Positions 1 to 11,095 of a stretch of 11,095 nt of DNA are shown piece by piece. This stretch comes from a virus. How positions within the stretch are numbered: position 1 is the stretch's first letter; every line of letters begins with the position of its first letter. The stretch spans positions 1 through 11,095 of IMG/VR virus record IMGVR_UViG_3300020227_000065. One strand, given 5' to 3'. The position numbers and the translations under genes were made by a program. The notes below the pieces were generated by a model that saw nothing but the letters and a program-made list of their open reading frames with translations, ran no database searches and was not told where the DNA came from.

Positions 1-70
1 GCCCCCCCCCCTCTAATTGTCCAAATCCCCATAATAGTCTGACAATTATGTGCGAGTGAAGGTGGCTAAA

Positions 71-190
71 GATTCAAAATGATTAGAATTATCTGACAAT
101 ACGATCTATGATTCTAAAAGATTTCTGATAATTCAAAATGATTTTTTAACTTGACAACATGGGTCAAATATGATTCTATTTTGATTCATA
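71..190. repeat. Degenerate ~60-bp direct duplication inside the ITR, with three conserved blocks per unit
   Basis: ATTCAAAATGATT occurs at 72-84 and 131-143. TGACAA occurs at 94-99 and 152-157. TATGATTCTA occurs at 107-116 and 169-178. The block order is the same in both units, offset by 58-62 bp. The structure is mirrored in ITR-R. Confidence 0.6.
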
Positions 191-210
191 AATGGGGCAT
201 GTTGTCAAGT
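149..210. repeat. 13-bp inverted repeat (ACTTGACAACATG / CATGTTGTCAAGT) with a 36-nt spacer at the inner edge of ITR-L
   Basis: Arms at 149-161 and 198-210 are perfectly complementary. The left arm contains a consensus TTGACA (151-156). T-rich sequence follows (212-222). Confidence 0.8.
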
Positions 211-1771: not shown

Positions 1772-3883
1772 ATGATAGATATTAAACAACTAAAAATAGA
1801 AAACTTACAATCTATCAATATACCCACTATTAGAACCAATAAGAAAATAGAATATCTGAATATAGAAAGTGCATTCGATATTGAAACAACTTCTATAAAA
1901 TTACAGGGTGATGAAAAAAGCGCATTTATGTATATATGGATGTTCGGCATAGGTTATGGGGAAAATGTTTACTATGGTAGAACATGGAAACAATTTATAG
2001 ATTTATGTAAAATCCTACAAAAAACATACGGACTAAATAAAAACAAAAGATTAGTAGTTTATGTTCATAACCTGGGATATGAATTTCAATTCATGCGGAA
2101 ATATTTTGAATGGGAAAATGTTTTTGCGGTTGGGGAACGAAAACCCATAAAAGCACTATGTACCTATGGAATAGAATTTAGGGATAGTTATATATTAAGT
2201 GGGTATTCACTAGCAAAAACAGGGGAAAACCTACAAAAACACAATATCCAAAAATTAACGGGTGATCTAGATTATTCATTAATAAGAACCCAACATACTA
2301 CATTAACAGATGAAGAAATGGCATATTGTAACAATGATATAGAAGTAGTAAACGCGTATATCAATGAACAAATAGAACAATACGGGGATATTACAAAAAT
2401 ACCCTTAACAAATACGGGAAGGGTTAGAAGTTATGTAAGAAATAATTGTTATTATACAAGCAAGAATCATAGAAAATCAAGTAAGGGAAAATATTACCGT
2501 TATCGTAAAATCATGAATGATCTAACCGTTACTAAAGATGAATATGTAAGGTTAAAACGTGCTTTTATGGGGGGATTTACACACGCAAACGCAAATTATA
2601 GCGGTCAATTACTGGAAGGGGTAACAAGTATAGATTTTACAAGTAGCTATCCTAGTGTTATGTTAGCGGAACAATATCCAATGAGTAGGGGAAAAGAAGT
2701 ACAAATAAAAAACATATCCCATTTAGAATGGTACTGTAATAAATTTTGTATGTTGTTTGATATAAAATTACACAATGTAAGAAGTAAAATTCCACAAGAA
2801 AACTACATAAGTGAAAGTAAGTGCTATGTTTTAAAAGGTGCGGAAATTAATAATGGTAGGGTGTATAGTGCGGAAGAACTAGCCATGACAATTACTAATG
2901 TAGATTATGATATTATCAAACAATGTTATGAATGGGACGGAATAAGTGTTACTAATGTAATACGATACCACAAGGGATATTTACCTAAACCCATTATAGA
3001 AAGTATTTTAAAATTATATCAAGATAAAACCGTATTAAAAGGGGTAGAAGGGTATGAAGTCGAATACCTACTATCTAAAGGAATGTTAAATAGCGTATAT
3101 GGTATGTGTGTAACGGATATTGTAAAAGATGAACATACCTACTTAGATGAATGGGGAAAAGAGCCAGCTAACATAGAAGAACAAATACAAAAATACAATG
3201 AAAGTAAAAATAGATTCTTATATTACCCTTGGGGTGTATGGGTTACGGCATATGCAAGAAAAAATTTATGGACCGGTATTTTAGCATTAGGGAATGATTA
3301 TGTTTATAGTGATACAGATTCTATTAAAATGTTGAATTATGAAAAACATTTAGATTATATTGGTTGGTATAATACTATGACGGTACAAAAATTACAAGAA
3401 ATGTGTAAACATTATAAAATAGATGATAAACTATTAGAACCAAAAACCAAAAAAGGTGAAAGGAAAATGATAGGGATATGGGATTATGAAGGAACATATT
3501 CCCGTTTTAAAACATTAGGGGCGAAAAGATACCTAGTACAAGAAGGTGATAAACTCTTTTTAACGGTTGCAGGCCTTTCTAAACAAAATGGGATAAATTA
3601 CATGATTGAACAGTGTAATGGTGATTATGAAAAAGTTTTTCATATGTTTAATGATGAATTATATGTACCTGCTGAACGTACGGGGAAAATGACACACACC
3701 TATATAGATGAAAAACAAGAATACAGAATAAAAGACTATCAAGGAAACGATTCTACTATTAGTGTAGAAAGTGGAATACATTTAGAACCATGTGACTTTA
3801 CATTAAGTATATCCAAGCAATACGGAAAATTTTTAGATCAATTTATGAAAGGTTATTTATTTAAGGGGGTACAATACCAATGA
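1772..3883 (+). CDS. Protein-primed family B DNA polymerase, 703 aa
   Basis: Motifs by residue:
- Exo I: FDIETT (D36/E38)
- Exo II: HNLGYEF (99-105)
- Exo III: YCNNDIEVV (Y185/D189)
- Pre-motif A: FMGGFT
- Motif A: DFTSSYPS (D288)
- Motif B: KGMLNSVYG (K436)
- Motif C: YSDTDS (D514/D516)
- KxY: GAKRYL
All are collinear with phi29 DNA polymerase. Confidence 0.97.
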   Translation: MIDIKQLKIENLQSINIPTIRTNKKIEYLNIESAFDIETTSIKLQGDEKSAFMYIWMFGIGYGENVYYGRTWKQFIDLCKILQKTYGLNKNKRLVVYVHNLGYEFQFMRKYFEWENVFAVGERKPIKALCTYGIEFRDSYILSGYSLAKTGENLQKHNIQKLTGDLDYSLIRTQHTTLTDEEMAYCNNDIEVVNAYINEQIEQYGDITKIPLTNTGRVRSYVRNNCYYTSKNHRKSSKGKYYRYRKIMNDLTVTKDEYVRLKRAFMGGFTHANANYSGQLLEGVTSIDFTSSYPSVMLAEQYPMSRGKEVQIKNISHLEWYCNKFCMLFDIKLHNVRSKIPQENYISESKCYVLKGAEINNGRVYSAEELAMTITNVDYDIIKQCYEWDGISVTNVIRYHKGYLPKPIIESILKLYQDKTVLKGVEGYEVEYLLSKGMLNSVYGMCVTDIVKDEHTYLDEWGKEPANIEEQIQKYNESKNRFLYYPWGVWVTAYARKNLWTGILALGNDYVYSDTDSIKMLNYEKHLDYIGWYNTMTVQKLQEMCKHYKIDDKLLEPKTKKGERKMIGIWDYEGTYSRFKTLGAKRYLVQEGDKLFLTVAGLSKQNGINYMIEQCNGDYEKVFHMFNDELYVPAERTGKMTHTYIDEKQEYRIKDYQGNDSTISVESGIHLEPCDFTLSISKQYGKFLDQFMKGYLFKGVQYQ

Positions 3884-5172: not shown

Positions 5173-6213
5173 ATGTATAATTATAAAAATAAAAGGGATA
5201 ACATAAAACAGTTAAATAAATATATGTTATCCCGCACCCTTTCTATGTTTAACTATTCGGATTTACCTACTACATTACCTAGTGTAGAAATGGAAAAACA
5301 GTTACAGAAAAAAGGGTACACCTTTATTACTATGGTAGAGGGTTCATTGTATGCATTTCAGGGGGGTTTAGGTGGTGAACCCAACCCCTATGGACAACCA
5401 ACGAAAATAACCATTAATAACCCTTCATTAAACTATAGTGCAACATTAGATATAGAAAAAGATGGGGTATTAATTAAAAATGATGATATGATGATGGGGT
5501 TGTTTACACTATTTGATAAATATAATACCTTATTAATTGAAAATGAAATTACTATGTTTATAAATTCCTACAATACGAGGGTTCAAACGCTTTTAAGTGC
5601 AGGTGATGATTCTACCAAAGAAAGTGCGGAATTATACCTAAAGAAAGTAATAGAAGGGGAATTGGGTATCATAGGGGAAAACCAATTATTTGAGGATTTA
5701 AAAGTGCAAAAAGCGCAAGCAGACAATGCAAACGTAACAACTCAACTAATAGAGTTTAACCAATATTTGAAAGCAAGTCTATATAATGAAGTAGGCTTAA
5801 ATGCTAACTTTAATATGAAAAGGGAAAGACTAAATTCTAGTGAGGTGAAACTCAATACCGACAACCTATACCCCCTTATTCATAATATGCTAGAAAATCG
5901 AAAACAAGGCATAGAGAAACTAAATGAAATGTATGATTTACAAATAGGTGTGGAATTTGGTTCTATATGGAATTTTAGAAATATTAGTGATACAATAGAA
6001 GAACCTAAAGAAACCATAGACGAACAAGAAGAACCAACATTGGAAAATGAAGAACCTTCATTGGAACAAGAAGAACCTATTTTGGAAGATGAAGAACCAA
6101 CATTGGAAAATGAAGAACCAATTTCGGAAGATGAAGAACCAATTTCGGAAGATGAAGAACCAATTTCGGAAGATGAAAGTGCTACTACATTAGAGGAGGT
6201 GGAAAAAAGATGA
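5173..6213 (+). CDS. Portal / upper collar (connector) protein with an acidic C-terminal repeat tail, 346 aa
   Basis: The N-terminal pattern LSRTLSMFNYSDLPTTLPSVEMEKQLQKKGYTFIT resembles phi29 gp10 ([28 protein letters not shown]). Its size and its position next to the packaging ATPase fit a portal. The C-terminal 50 aa are (EEPxxE[NQD])7. Confidence 0.75.
   Translation: MYNYKNKRDNIKQLNKYMLSRTLSMFNYSDLPTTLPSVEMEKQLQKKGYTFITMVEGSLYAFQGGLGGEPNPYGQPTKITINNPSLNYSATLDIEKDGVLIKNDDMMMGLFTLFDKYNTLLIENEITMFINSYNTRVQTLLSAGDDSTKESAELYLKKVIEGELGIIGENQLFEDLKVQKAQADNANVTTQLIEFNQYLKASLYNEVGLNANFNMKRERLNSSEVKLNTDNLYPLIHNMLENRKQGIEKLNEMYDLQIGVEFGSIWNFRNISDTIEEPKETIDEQEEPTLENEEPSLEQEEPILEDEEPTLENEEPISEDEEPISEDEEPISEDESATTLEEVEKR
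6028..6174 (+). repeat. In-frame tandem repeat, 7 x 21 bp, encoding EEPTLEN/EEPSLEQ/EEPILED/EEPTLEN/EEPISED x3
   Basis: Units start at 6028, 6049, 6070, 6091, 6112, 6133 and 6154. Units 5-7 are identical at nucleotide level (63 bp) and units 1 and 4 are identical. A degenerate copy lies upstream (5998-6027, EEPKETIDEQ). Confidence 0.95.
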
Positions 6214-6749
6214 TGTTTAATGAGTGGATAAAAGATAATTCTTTATTTAGTGAAATTGATTCTATTAAACCTTTCCCCTTTATATCTCAACATGGGGCAA
6301 AAAACATAGATTTAGTTTATAAAATGAGTTATGGAAGTAAAACCATTCCCAAAAATGTGGAATGTTTAACGGTTAATGAAGTTGCTAACATAATTGTTGT
6401 TAATTATGGGGATAGCTGGAATAACAAATATAGCCTATTAAAAGATGAAATTTTATTAGGGGTGGAAGAAAAAACCGTATTAGATGAAACCGTAACAGAT
6501 GAATATTTAAGGACTATGAGTAGTAACCAAGAAAATAAAGTAAGTGCTTTTAATGATGATGAATTAAGTCCTAACGATTCTAGCAATGATTCCCTAAATG
6601 ATAAAAGCGATAAAGATGTAAACAGGAATAGGGAAATTACAAAAACAAGTTTGAACGCTATTAAAACACAATTAGAAATATTCAATTCCAATTTTATCAA
6701 TATAGTATGTAAAGATGTAAGTAAAATTGTTTCACTATCAATCTATTAA
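6210..6749 (+). CDS. Hypothetical 179-aa morphogenesis/virion protein with an acidic Ser/Asn/Asp-rich linker
   Basis: Strong SD GAGGAGGTGG (6192-6201) and an ATGA overlap with the portal stop. Low-complexity segment SPNDSSNDSLNDKSDKDVNRN. It occupies the slot after the portal where phi29 has the lower collar, but I recognise no motif. Confidence 0.55.
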   Translation: MMFNEWIKDNSLFSEIDSIKPFPFISQHGAKNIDLVYKMSYGSKTIPKNVECLTVNEVANIIVVNYGDSWNNKYSLLKDEILLGVEEKTVLDETVTDEYLRTMSSNQENKVSAFNDDELSPNDSSNDSLNDKSDKDVNRNREITKTSLNAIKTQLEIFNSNFINIVCKDVSKIVSLSIY

Positions 6750-6778
6750 AAGGGGAATGTAAAATGAAAATTACACAA
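6748..6778 (+). repeat. Duplicated translation-initiation region, copy 1 (SD + ATG + MKITQ codons)
   Basis: AAAAGGgGAATGTAAAATGAAAATTACACAA matches 7074-7104 at 30 of 31 positions. The 24 nt at 6755-6778 are identical to 7081-7104. Confidence 0.9.
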
Positions 6779-7073: not shown

Positions 7074-7104
7074 AAAAGGAGAATGTAAAATGAAAATTAC
7101 ACAA
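7074..7104 (+). repeat. Duplicated translation-initiation region, copy 2 (SD + ATG + MKITQ codons)
   Basis: AAAAGGaGAATGTAAAATGAAAATTACACAA. See copy 1. Confidence 0.9.
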
Positions 7105-8743: not shown

Positions 8744-10204
8744 ATGGCTATTAAAAGTAGGCATTTTTATTGGGATATTGAAAATAGGCATAGGGTAGAA
8801 TCATTTTTTATTTATAATCATGGTAGTGGTACGGGTGCGGATAGAAACTATATGGAAGAATCATTTGATTATCAATTTACAGGGGAAAATACCTATACTA
8901 TTACAATTAATGCTAAGAGTGGTTATGGTTTTATTGAACCCCCGTTAATACGTCATTTTACAAGTGCGGATTCCACTGTGAGTGATTCATCTATACCAAT
9001 GGAAATTAATGAGGATAGAACACAAGCAACATTTACATTTACCAATGGAAACGGGAATTATTACGGGTTGGATAATGACTGGAAATTATATCTTTATAGT
9101 GAAGTAGAAGATTATTTAGGAATAGTTAAAACCTTTACCGCTTCATTACTAATGAATAATGTTACTTGTCATTTTAAAAATGGAACGGAAACCATTACCC
9201 TAAATTATGGGGAAAGTAAAGAAATTCCCGTAGGTAATTATAATATTGAAATAGTAGTAAATAATGGTTTTAAAATTGTTAGTATTACCGCAACCCATGA
9301 AGAAATTGGTCCTAATCCAAGTGGGGAAATGTATTTTTCTATATCAGATGATGGGAAGAAAGCAACGGGGAATAGTGATTTTAATGAAGGGGATACCCTA
9401 ACTATTAGGGGTGTAACGGAAATTGTAGAGGGTGTGCCTAGTGTAGTAGGTACGTTTAACCATTTATATTTAATAGATAGTACCAATTTACGAAAATTAA
9501 CGAATCATATTACAGTAATGGAAGCTAAAGAAGAAAGAGATACCATTCAACAGTATATGATAAATGTATTAAGATTCCCATTCAATATAAATGAAACCCA
9601 TATAATAGGTAATAATGGGGTTATATTAGGGGCGAAAATATTTGATAAATTAGAAGTATTAGAAATAGATATAGATCAACTAACTATAGATATGGGTAAA
9701 ATAGAAATACCGTTAAAATATAATAATACCTTTGATTATCTAAATACAAGTTGTATTTTACATTTACCCTACTCAGAAAATATAGAGTTAGAACCTAGTT
9801 ATATTATAGGTGAAACTATTTTTATAGAATATATTGTAAGTCTATATGATGGGGAAGGAACAATAAATATTAGTAGTAGCAAGATAGATGATGTTTTTCT
9901 ATCCCAACCTATCAAAATAGGTACGGTTATACCTTATTTTAACCATAATCAAAAAGGATACACACAATCCCAGCAAACATTGTTAGGTGTATATAATAAG
10001 TTAAAACAGGCATATGTAGAAGTAATTAGGAACATACCATATGAAAATGATAGTCCATTTAATGATGGGGTGATAACTCAATCTAAATTAAAAAATGAAA
10101 AGGGTTATGTTAAAGTGAATAATATAATACTAGAAAATAAAGCAACTTCACAAGAAAGAAATGAAATTATTAGAATGTTGGAAAGTGGGGTATTTATTAA
10201 ATGA
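8744..10204 (+). CDS. 486-aa tail protein: beta-rich N-terminal half (candidate receptor-binding modules) plus a conserved-looking C-terminal tail-tube/knob-like half
   Basis: SD AGGGGG lies 7 nt upstream. It is the only large ORF between the capsid and lysis genes. The N-terminal ~240 aa contain two similar beta-strand-like modules (YTITINAKSGYGFIEPP and YNIEIVVNNGFKIVSITAT). The C-terminal half has LHLPYSENIELEPSYIIGETIFIEYIVSLYDGEGTINI, a pattern I associate with phage tail hub/knob barrels. Confidence 0.5.
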   Translation: MAIKSRHFYWDIENRHRVESFFIYNHGSGTGADRNYMEESFDYQFTGENTYTITINAKSGYGFIEPPLIRHFTSADSTVSDSSIPMEINEDRTQATFTFTNGNGNYYGLDNDWKLYLYSEVEDYLGIVKTFTASLLMNNVTCHFKNGTETITLNYGESKEIPVGNYNIEIVVNNGFKIVSITATHEEIGPNPSGEMYFSISDDGKKATGNSDFNEGDTLTIRGVTEIVEGVPSVVGTFNHLYLIDSTNLRKLTNHITVMEAKEERDTIQQYMINVLRFPFNINETHIIGNNGVILGAKIFDKLEVLEIDIDQLTIDMGKIEIPLKYNNTFDYLNTSCILHLPYSENIELEPSYIIGETIFIEYIVSLYDGEGTINISSSKIDDVFLSQPIKIGTVIPYFNHNQKGYTQSQQTLLGVYNKLKQAYVEVIRNIPYENDSPFNDGVITQSKLKNEKGYVKVNNIILENKATSQERNEIIRMLESGVFIK

Positions 10205-10878
10205 TGTACTATGACAAAAGAAACCGTAACAACATTAAAAAACTAGCAAATAACACTAGAAAAAAGGCTTTGCAATGGTATGAATTTTGTGTAAAGAATA
10301 ACATTAATATTTTAGTATATGAAACAATTAGGGACGAAAAAACGCAACGGGAGAACGTGCAGAAAGGTGTTTCTCAAACCATGAAAAGTTACCATTTAGT
10401 AGGACAAGCACTGGATTTTGTACCCGTTAATTCTAAAGGTGAAACCCTATGGAATGGGTATGGTGCTAGTGATATAAAGAAAGCTATTGAACATGCCAAA
10501 AAACTAGGCTTTGAATGGGGTGGCGATTGGAAAGGTTTCATAGATAAACCCCACCTACAATATAATTATAATGGTTATGGTTCGGATTCATTCGATAAAC
10601 CTTCTAATAATGAACAAATAACAATGGATATTGAAAACCTAGTAAAACGTACTATTAGAGGTGATTTTGGTAACGGTGAAGAACGTAAAAGAAAATTAGG
10701 TTCTAATTATCAAAGAGTACAAGATATTATTAATGGTAAAACTTATAATAATTCAGTTAATATTGACGATTTAGTGAAGCGTACTATTAGAGGTGAATTT
10801 GGCAACGGTGCTGAACGTAAAAAGAAACTAGGAAAACATTACAATGAAGTGCAAAAAAGAATAAATAAAATGTATTAA
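10201..10878 (+). CDS. Endolysin: peptidase M15 (VanY/L-Ala-D-Glu peptidase-like, LAS fold) catalytic domain + two CW_7 (Cpl-7-type) cell-wall-binding repeats
   Basis: Zn ligand pattern SYH65LVGQALD72 (H-x6-D), EWGGDW and DKPH118LQ. Two repeats carry LVKRTIRG[DE]FGNG.ERK.KLG..Y..VQ..IN, matching the CW_7 consensus. No signal peptide. ATGA overlap with the upstream gene. Confidence 0.9.
   Translation: MMYYDKRNRNNIKKLANNTRKKALQWYEFCVKNNINILVYETIRDEKTQRENVQKGVSQTMKSYHLVGQALDFVPVNSKGETLWNGYGASDIKKAIEHAKKLGFEWGGDWKGFIDKPHLQYNYNGYGSDSFDKPSNNEQITMDIENLVKRTIRGDFGNGEERKRKLGSNYQRVQDIINGKTYNNSVNIDDLVKRTIRGEFGNGAERKKKLGKHYNEVQKRINKMY
10627..10872 (+). repeat. Two CW_7 repeat units (10627-10737 and 10762-10872) within the endolysin
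   Basis: aa 143-179 and aa 188-224 are highly similar. The nucleotide strings are also close (…CGTACTATTAGAGGTGA[TA]TTTGG[TC]AACGGTG…GAACGTAAAA…). Confidence 0.85.
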
Positions 10879-10884
10879 TAACTT

Positions 10885-11095
10885 TACTTGACAACATGCC
10901 CCATTTATGAATCAAAATAGAATCATATTTGACCCATGTTGTCAAGTTAAAAAATCATTTTGAATTATCAGAAATCTTTTAGAATCATAGATCGTATTGT
11001 CAGATAATTCTAATCATTTTGAATCTTTAGCCACCTTCACTCGCACATAATTGTCAGACTATTATGGGGATTTGGACAATTAGAGGGGGGGGGGC
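10885..11095. repeat. Right inverted terminal repeat (ITR-R), 211 bp, ending GGGGGGGGGGC-3'
   Basis: Exact reverse complement of 1-211. It begins 6 nt after the endolysin stop codon (10876-10878). Confidence 0.97.
10886..10947. repeat. Mirror copy of the 13-bp-arm inverted repeat at the inner edge of ITR-R, immediately after the last gene
   Basis: Arms at 10886-10898 and 10935-10947. It starts 8 nt after the endolysin stop and is the only potential RNA hairpin downstream of the + strand gene train. Confidence 0.8.

Follow-up and report, generated by a model that had tools for sequence, protein, structure and literature searches.

A C-rich block near the ends of a phi29-like phage genome that probably lacks its outermost nine bases

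The 11,095-nt stretch of viral DNA analysed here over its full length (the window) is probably the near-complete genome of a protein-primed phage that is 9 nt short at each end, with the G followed by ten C at its tips representing a subterminal origin element that occupies positions 10-20 of the full terminus.

The genome and its inverted terminal repeat

The window opens with GCCCCCCCCCCTCTAATTG. Its first 11 positions read GCCCCCCCCCC and positions 11085-11095 are the exact reverse complement, so that both termini do consist of a G and ten C, as the first-pass annotation had described them. The two copies of G + C10 are the outer tips of an inverted terminal repeat (ITR) with arms at 1-211 and 10885-11095 that are identical at 100% of their 211 nt, as expected for a linear dsDNA replicon of the protein-primed type. 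The window has a GC content of 30.6% and a GC skew that is positive along the whole genome, and this tract is its only run of C or G of at least 7 nt. From 200 dinucleotide-preserving shuffles, the expected number of matches to the 11-mer with at most one mismatch was 0.07, and the two matches observed are the two arms of one repeat. Since the tract is the sole run of this kind and the shuffle expectation is as low as 0.07, we regard it as correct and not as a chance feature. The features of the repeat are as follows.

1-11, + strand: G + C10, left copy, equal to positions 10-20 of the full terminus in the anchored alignment with relatives; the G closes the conserved decamer GGGWTATCCG, and the ten C make up the C-rich box I of the putative origin
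11085-11095, - strand: G + C10, right copy, reverse complement of 1-11
1-211, + strand: left ITR, 211 nt as assembled and probably 220 nt with the predicted 9 missing bases
10885-11095, - strand: right ITR, starting 6 nt past the endolysin stop codon
26-34, + strand: box II, TCCCCATAA, with CCCC at 27-30
149-210, no strand assigned: imperfect palindrome at the inner edge of the ITR, with 28-nt arms (149-176 and 183-210) that are 79% complementary and a 6-nt spacer

The interior of the ITR (window positions 40-210 and their mirror) contains repeated CTGACAAT/TTGACAAC motifs as well as repeated GATTCAAAATGATT-like motifs, and promoter-like hexamers are enriched there (8 found versus 3.2 expected), some of them overlapped by the imperfect palindrome. 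Such an arrangement could drive transcription inwards from both ends.

The long open reading frames are all located on the + strand, and their products include the following.

1100-1756, + strand: terminal-protein candidate of 218 aa, encoded immediately before the polymerase gene and 54% identical to Phanie PHANIE_0020 (gp2)
1772-3883, + strand: protein-primed-type family-B DNA polymerase, 703 aa (PF03175, E=1.6e-13, 50.9 bits against a cut-off of 25.8)
phi29 gp16-type packaging ATPase (PF05894, E=6.7e-18)
phi29-type connector (PF05352, E=2.4e-17)
phi29-type major capsid protein (PF25622, E=1e-54)
holin-like protein (phrog_4898, E=1.9e-08)
10201-10878: endolysin with an M15 peptidase domain (PF13539, E=7.9e-14) and two CW_7 repeats (PF08230, E=6.3e-21)

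The polymerase falls within the protein-primed clade of family B and is 59-64% identical to its counterparts in Acinetobacter phage Phanie, Pectobacterium phage DU_PP_III, Enterobacter phage Entb_47 and Salmonella Astrithrvirus phages, all of which are annotated as DNA polymerase. The product of 1100-1756 is a candidate terminal protein with a putative priming role; a profile search placed it in no Pfam family above the cut-off, and a terminal-protein counterpart is among the genes common to the phage group in a review of phi29-like phages (PMC11476376). The protein-primed context proposed at first reading is thus borne out by the PF03175 polymerase, the perfect ITR and an upstream gene that resembles its Phanie equivalent.

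Gene order and proteins are shared with the Astrithrvirus-group phages DU_PP_III (MF979562) and Phanie (OX458330), with identities of 64% for the polymerase and 54% for the terminal-protein candidate, and with the gp16-type ATPase, the connector and the phi29-type capsid protein in common. The ITRs of these two phages are likewise long, 171-219 bp. The window differs from them in the CW_7 wall-binding repeats of its endolysin and in having no minus-strand genes at its right end, where Phanie and the astrithr group have 2-4 small ones (comparison with L002, L005 and L006); at its left end it has extra small open reading frames at 461-808 and 863-1099 without a family match. With phi29 it shares the virion and replication gene set (PF03175, PF05894, PF05352 and PF25622), but phi29 has a 6-nt ITR with an A-reiteration, no C-tract and a pRNA; an Rfam scan of the window matched no family and recognised no pRNA.

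A megablast search against deposited phages recovered a single segment of 677 nt with 73.8% identity to DU_PP_III, corresponding to about 6% of the window, and no match to astrithr, Astrid or assan. In ICTV practice a genus is delimited at about 70% nucleotide similarity over the genome, a level that the window does not approach with genus Astrithrvirus; at the protein level its polymerase is 59% identical to that of astrithr. On sequence grounds the window is a new Astrithrvirus-related, phi29-like podovirus outside the genus Astrithrvirus. No relative was found in GTDB genomes searched with the polymerase.

Peptidase_M15_4 combined with two CW_7 cell-wall-binding repeats is an endolysin design in the Gram-positive style, and every named relative infects a Gram-negative host. 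Window sequence occurs in runs from plant, compost and fermentation metagenomes. A low-GC Gram-positive bacterium may be the host. Two further repeats were observed within the genes. The 3' end of the connector gene (5980-6189) contains at least 7 register steps of 21 nt, in overlapping 84-nt copies, which encode acidic heptads (EEPTLEN, EEPISED and similar). A 31-nt duplication with 97% identity (6748-6778 and 7074-7104) comprises a ribosome-binding site and a start codon and precedes two consecutive genes, an 89-aa open reading frame and the major capsid protein gene, whose products both begin with MKITQ.

The C-rich block in complete termini

To place the tract relative to complete termini, the deposited genomes of relatives were fetched whole and read at both ends, and IMG/VR contigs were retrieved with the polymerase, the capsid protein and a DNA pattern as queries. 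A GGG(A/T)TATCCG start followed by a C-rich block of 9-10 nt at positions 11-19/20 is shared by five independent relatives (DU_PP_III, Phanie, L014, L026 and L030). The first bases of these and two other contigs are listed here.

DU_PP_III: GGGATATCCG CCCCCCCCCC GTTCG...
Phanie: GGGTTATCCG CCCCCCTCC TATCC...
L014 (both ends): GGGATATCCG CACCCCCCC TCTCC...
L026: GGGATATCCG CACCCCCCCC TACCC...
L030: GGGATATCCG CACCCCCCCC ACGTT...
L081: GGGTTATCC CACCTCCCC ATCTC...
L091: GGGTATATCC CCCCCC TCC GTG...

We take the same GGG start in independent assemblies to be the mark of a physical DNA end. The G at window position 1 aligns with the G at position 10 of the relatives, and the C10 of the window corresponds to their positions 11-20, exactly as in DU_PP_III, which has an identical G + C10 (Phanie has G + CCCCCCTCC). 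The DU_PP_III and Phanie records carry GGGWTATCC outside this G, whereas the window does not. What had been described as a genome ending in G(C)10 is accordingly the end of a contig, outside which all five relatives have these additional bases at the same G. ITRs of relatives that start near window position 12 had also been envisaged, and the opposite was observed, in that the relatives start 9 nt further out.

An A or T breaks the C-block in L014, L026, L030, L011 and Phanie (for example CACCCCCCCC and CCCCCCTCC). Its purity thus varies among GGG-type relatives (C10, CAC8, CAC7, C6TCC), while the block occupies a constant position and spans about one helical turn throughout. The G at position 10 is not universal, with a C at the equivalent site in L081 and L091. 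A constant place and width combined with a variable purity fits an element that is recognised by protein or has a structural function, not a slippage substrate. Further in, about 30-41 nt from the true end, most GGG-type relatives, the AAAGGTA-type relatives and PRD1 have a TTCCC(C)A-type motif, the window counterpart of which is the CCCC of box II; in most of the GGG-type ends listed above it falls at about 33-40.

The nearest characterised system is that of the alphatectivirus PRD1, the ITR of which opens with GGGGATACGTGCCCCTCCCC and has a further CCCC at 32-35. The likeness consists of a 5' G-reiteration, then ATA, then a C-rich block at 11/12-20, PRD1 having GCCCCTCCCC where the C-tract sits at positions 11-20 of the restored end. 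Positions 2-20 of PRD1 and 1-19 of DU_PP_III are identical at 15 of 19 sites, a level reached by none of the 2.46 million internal 19-mers in the loci examined. The relatives match the PRD1-type layout at these 15 sites; the window lacks the outer part of it. PRD1 differs in having GGGG where the relatives have GGG, in its 110-bp ITR and in its membrane-containing tectivirus virion. The window polymerase showed a weak N-terminal match to PRD1 P1 (27% over 192 aa, E=1e-6), and the terminal-protein candidates had no detectable similarity to the PRD1 terminal protein. Because of the weakness of the first match and the lack of detectable similarity in the second, the resemblance between the origins may be convergent.

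The PRD1 origin is given as the terminal 20 bp of the repeat, preferably in double-stranded form (PMC4150772), and initiation is described as taking place opposite the fourth C of 3'-CCCC, followed by sliding back (PMC5175343). In adenovirus, the pTP/polymerase complex recognises positions 8-17 (PMC4150772). The adenovirus core origin is similar in having a conserved recognition block at about 8-18 nt from the end, internal to a short terminal reiteration and within a long ITR, but it is unrelated in sequence, and adenovirus primes with dCMP, jumps back on a trinucleotide repeat and employs host factors.

We infer the identity of the nine bases missing from the window, the role of the tract in origin recognition and the initiating nucleotide. 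The predicted sequence of the full terminus is 5'-GGG(A/T)TATCC-G-CCCCCCCCCC-TCTAATTG..., in which G + C10 would form the inner half of a double-stranded origin of about 20 bp that is recognised by the heterodimer of terminal protein and polymerase. The terminal protein would be joined to dGMP at an internal C of the template 3'-CCC, after which the end would be recovered by sliding back over the short GGG reiteration, in the way that PRD1 starts from the fourth C of its 3'-CCCC. Origin recognition through C10 and initiation with dGMP are our best reading, drawn from position and analogy.

The tract had been proposed as a possible site of initiation and sliding back, a role at odds with its position at 11-20 behind GGGWTATCCG in the complete relatives. 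The doubt raised earlier about the outermost G was nevertheless justified. As given, the window starts with GC... and has no terminal reiteration, while every complete GGG-type relative ends in GGG, which is the reiteration expected for sliding back. The paradox of an outermost G that a C-run could not regenerate disappears because the restored end would slide back on GGG (template 3'-CCC) and not on the C-run.

A real subterminal tract with another role is an unlikely alternative to origin recognition: it might act as a G·C clamp against fraying near the AT-rich WTAT, as an end-specific packaging signal on DNA carrying the terminal protein (TP-DNA), or through a G-rich structure of the displaced strand. 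Conservation of position and of a width of about one helical turn, as opposed to exact sequence, would suit a structural role equally well, and packaging of the phi29 type acts on TP-capped ends. Against this, PRD1 maps origin function to exactly the same interval, and the AAAGGTA-type relatives, which have the same packaging proteins, lack a long C-run and show only GACCC at about 15-20. A G-quadruplex formed by the template-strand G10 was considered and rejected, since a single run and one GGGG cannot supply four G-tracts of three.

Physical ends and assembly

The assembly of the window very probably lacks the last 9 bases at each end. The near-twins L011 and L030 have closely similar ITRs, and L030 has the full GGGATATCCG whereas L011, like the window, begins at the G. 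A variant from a compost metagenome (run X3) is about 91% identical to the window over 209 nt. Letters 1-209 of its 218-nt unitig align to window positions 209-1, an orientation checked against a second alignment record, and are followed by exactly 9 more, which are known by count alone and equal GGGWTATCC in length. The unitig has no listed difference and no indel relative to window positions 1-40, from which it follows that the variant also has C10. The extreme homopolymer at the very end is probably an artefact of a 9-nt truncation.

The ends were poorly covered in run X1, which contains the window at 99-100% identity: its unitigs cover the ITR only from position 106, and depth over the ITR is 26 as opposed to 37 over unique sequence, although a two-copy repeat should have twice the unique depth. 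Assembled sequence in runs X11, X5, X6 and X7 stops short of the first 20 nt, exact-protein look-ups for other assemblies of the window phage returned only contigs cut inside the genome, and the window's own end used as a DNA pattern had no match in IMG/VR. The metagenome contigs retrieved with the polymerase were mostly cut well inside the ITR. Several genomes deposited as complete are also cut inside their terminal repeats, among them L003 (Entb_47), L005/L007 (astrithr and assan), L004 and L008; the two ends of Entb_47 stop at different points of the C-block, and astrithr and assan start 66 nt inside the repeat of Astrid. The genome of Vibrio phage K58 g2 is either permuted circularly or has its cut within genes.

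The symmetry of the window ends would be no argument for completeness, as the two arms of the ITR presumably form one path in the de Bruijn graph and so stop at the same base. The stop at the same G is shared by the window and L011, and L065 starts at its C-run. In L115, a Nextera ME adaptor is fused to genome position 10 of a terminus that reads AAAGGTACG followed by CTACTG...; the junction sequence CTACTGACCC... corresponds to position 10 in the full-length L125 and L121, where AAAGGTACG is followed by CTACTGACCC. L115 thus starts 9 nt inside a capped end, an example of how exactly 9 nt can be lost in a tagmentation library. Ligation libraries reach the true end, as seen from TruSeq adaptors that are joined directly to AAAGGTA... 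or AAATATGCA... in L101, L100, L089, L128 and L118. We conjecture that the shared stop at the G reflects a limit or hot spot of tagmentation, or else a library or trimming scheme that misses the last 9 nt. Breakage of the de Bruijn assembly at the 8-nt palindrome GGATATCC (positions 2-9 of the relatives) was rejected as a cause, the palindrome being far shorter than any k used. Illumina adaptors, either TruSeq or Nextera, were left on the ends of eight IMG/VR contigs (L101, L128, L100, L089, L118, L115, L104 and L021). They are contamination of public records, yet they mark true physical ends and, in L115, one tagmentation start at position 10.

That the physical ends are truly 5'-G(C)10, either through loss of the outer 9 nt or as a second class of molecules starting at G10, we consider very unlikely. 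Initiation would then be strictly terminal, dGMP pairing with the last C at the template 3' end without any sliding back. In favour of such ends, that C would remain available for the formation of TP-dGMP, and the window and L011 are two independent assemblies that start at exactly the same G. However, the X3 variant, with no listed difference over 1-40, runs 9 nt further out, and the near-twin of L011 has the full terminus. Moreover, a GC... end is without the terminal reiteration through which characterised protein-primed systems recover their ends (PMC5175343), and the ends are under-covered in the very run that holds the window.

It is hardly credible that the C-tract, or the G and the tract, was added technically by terminal-transferase tailing, as an adaptor remnant or as a two-colour poly-G artefact. 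That suspicion could arise from an uninterrupted homopolymer at either end of a contig that is otherwise AT-rich, with poly-G at the 3' ends as a dark-cycle artefact would give. In isolates, however, and in metagenome contigs that come from unrelated projects and involve no tailing, the tract is found equally far from the end, with 9 conserved bases outside it. It contains an A or T in the five relatives named above and has the same length in the X3 variant, as judged from the absence of indels across it. The adaptors surviving on related contigs are ordinary TruSeq or Nextera ones and not C-runs.

End types within the family

The phi29 origin is AAAGTA, with sliding back over TTT, and the more distant members of the window's family end in AAAGGTA. 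These ends, AAAGGTA(C/T)..., close to the AAAGTA of phi29, were observed in a sister clade (L087, L096, L105, L116, L119, L125, L129, L130 and L106) with a capsid protein identity of 57-59%. One member, L106, reads AAAAAGGTA with two extra A, which may represent variation in end length from sliding back or an effect of assembly. A distant relative with a polymerase identity of 29% and a GC content of 52% (L024/L046) has GGGAC at both ends, with C-rich sequence deeper inside, and its two ends agree in just 5 nt of the repeat.

The combination of GGG(G)ATA, a C-rich block of one turn at 11-20 and CCCC near position 35 might, as a tentative and rather doubtful suggestion, be an origin design common to PRD1-like tectiviruses and one clade of phi29-like podoviruses, arising either from the exchange of an entire replication module, with its origin, terminal protein and polymerase, across two virus realms or from a physical need common to dGMP-primed initiation. 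Were this so, the AAAGGTA ends of the sister clade would record a change of priming specificity inside a single phage family.

The window genome, and probably other linear phage genomes derived from metagenomes, should be flagged as lacking a few terminal bases; an origin rebuilt from the window record would omit the bases that direct initiation. The current understanding of protein priming is unchanged by these results. For a poorly studied phage group that includes the satellite-like phage Phanie, the C-rich block is a concrete and testable candidate for the recognition half of the origin, and the occurrence of GGG... and AAAGGTA... ends in one family offers a natural series for how terminal protein and polymerase pick the initiating nucleotide.
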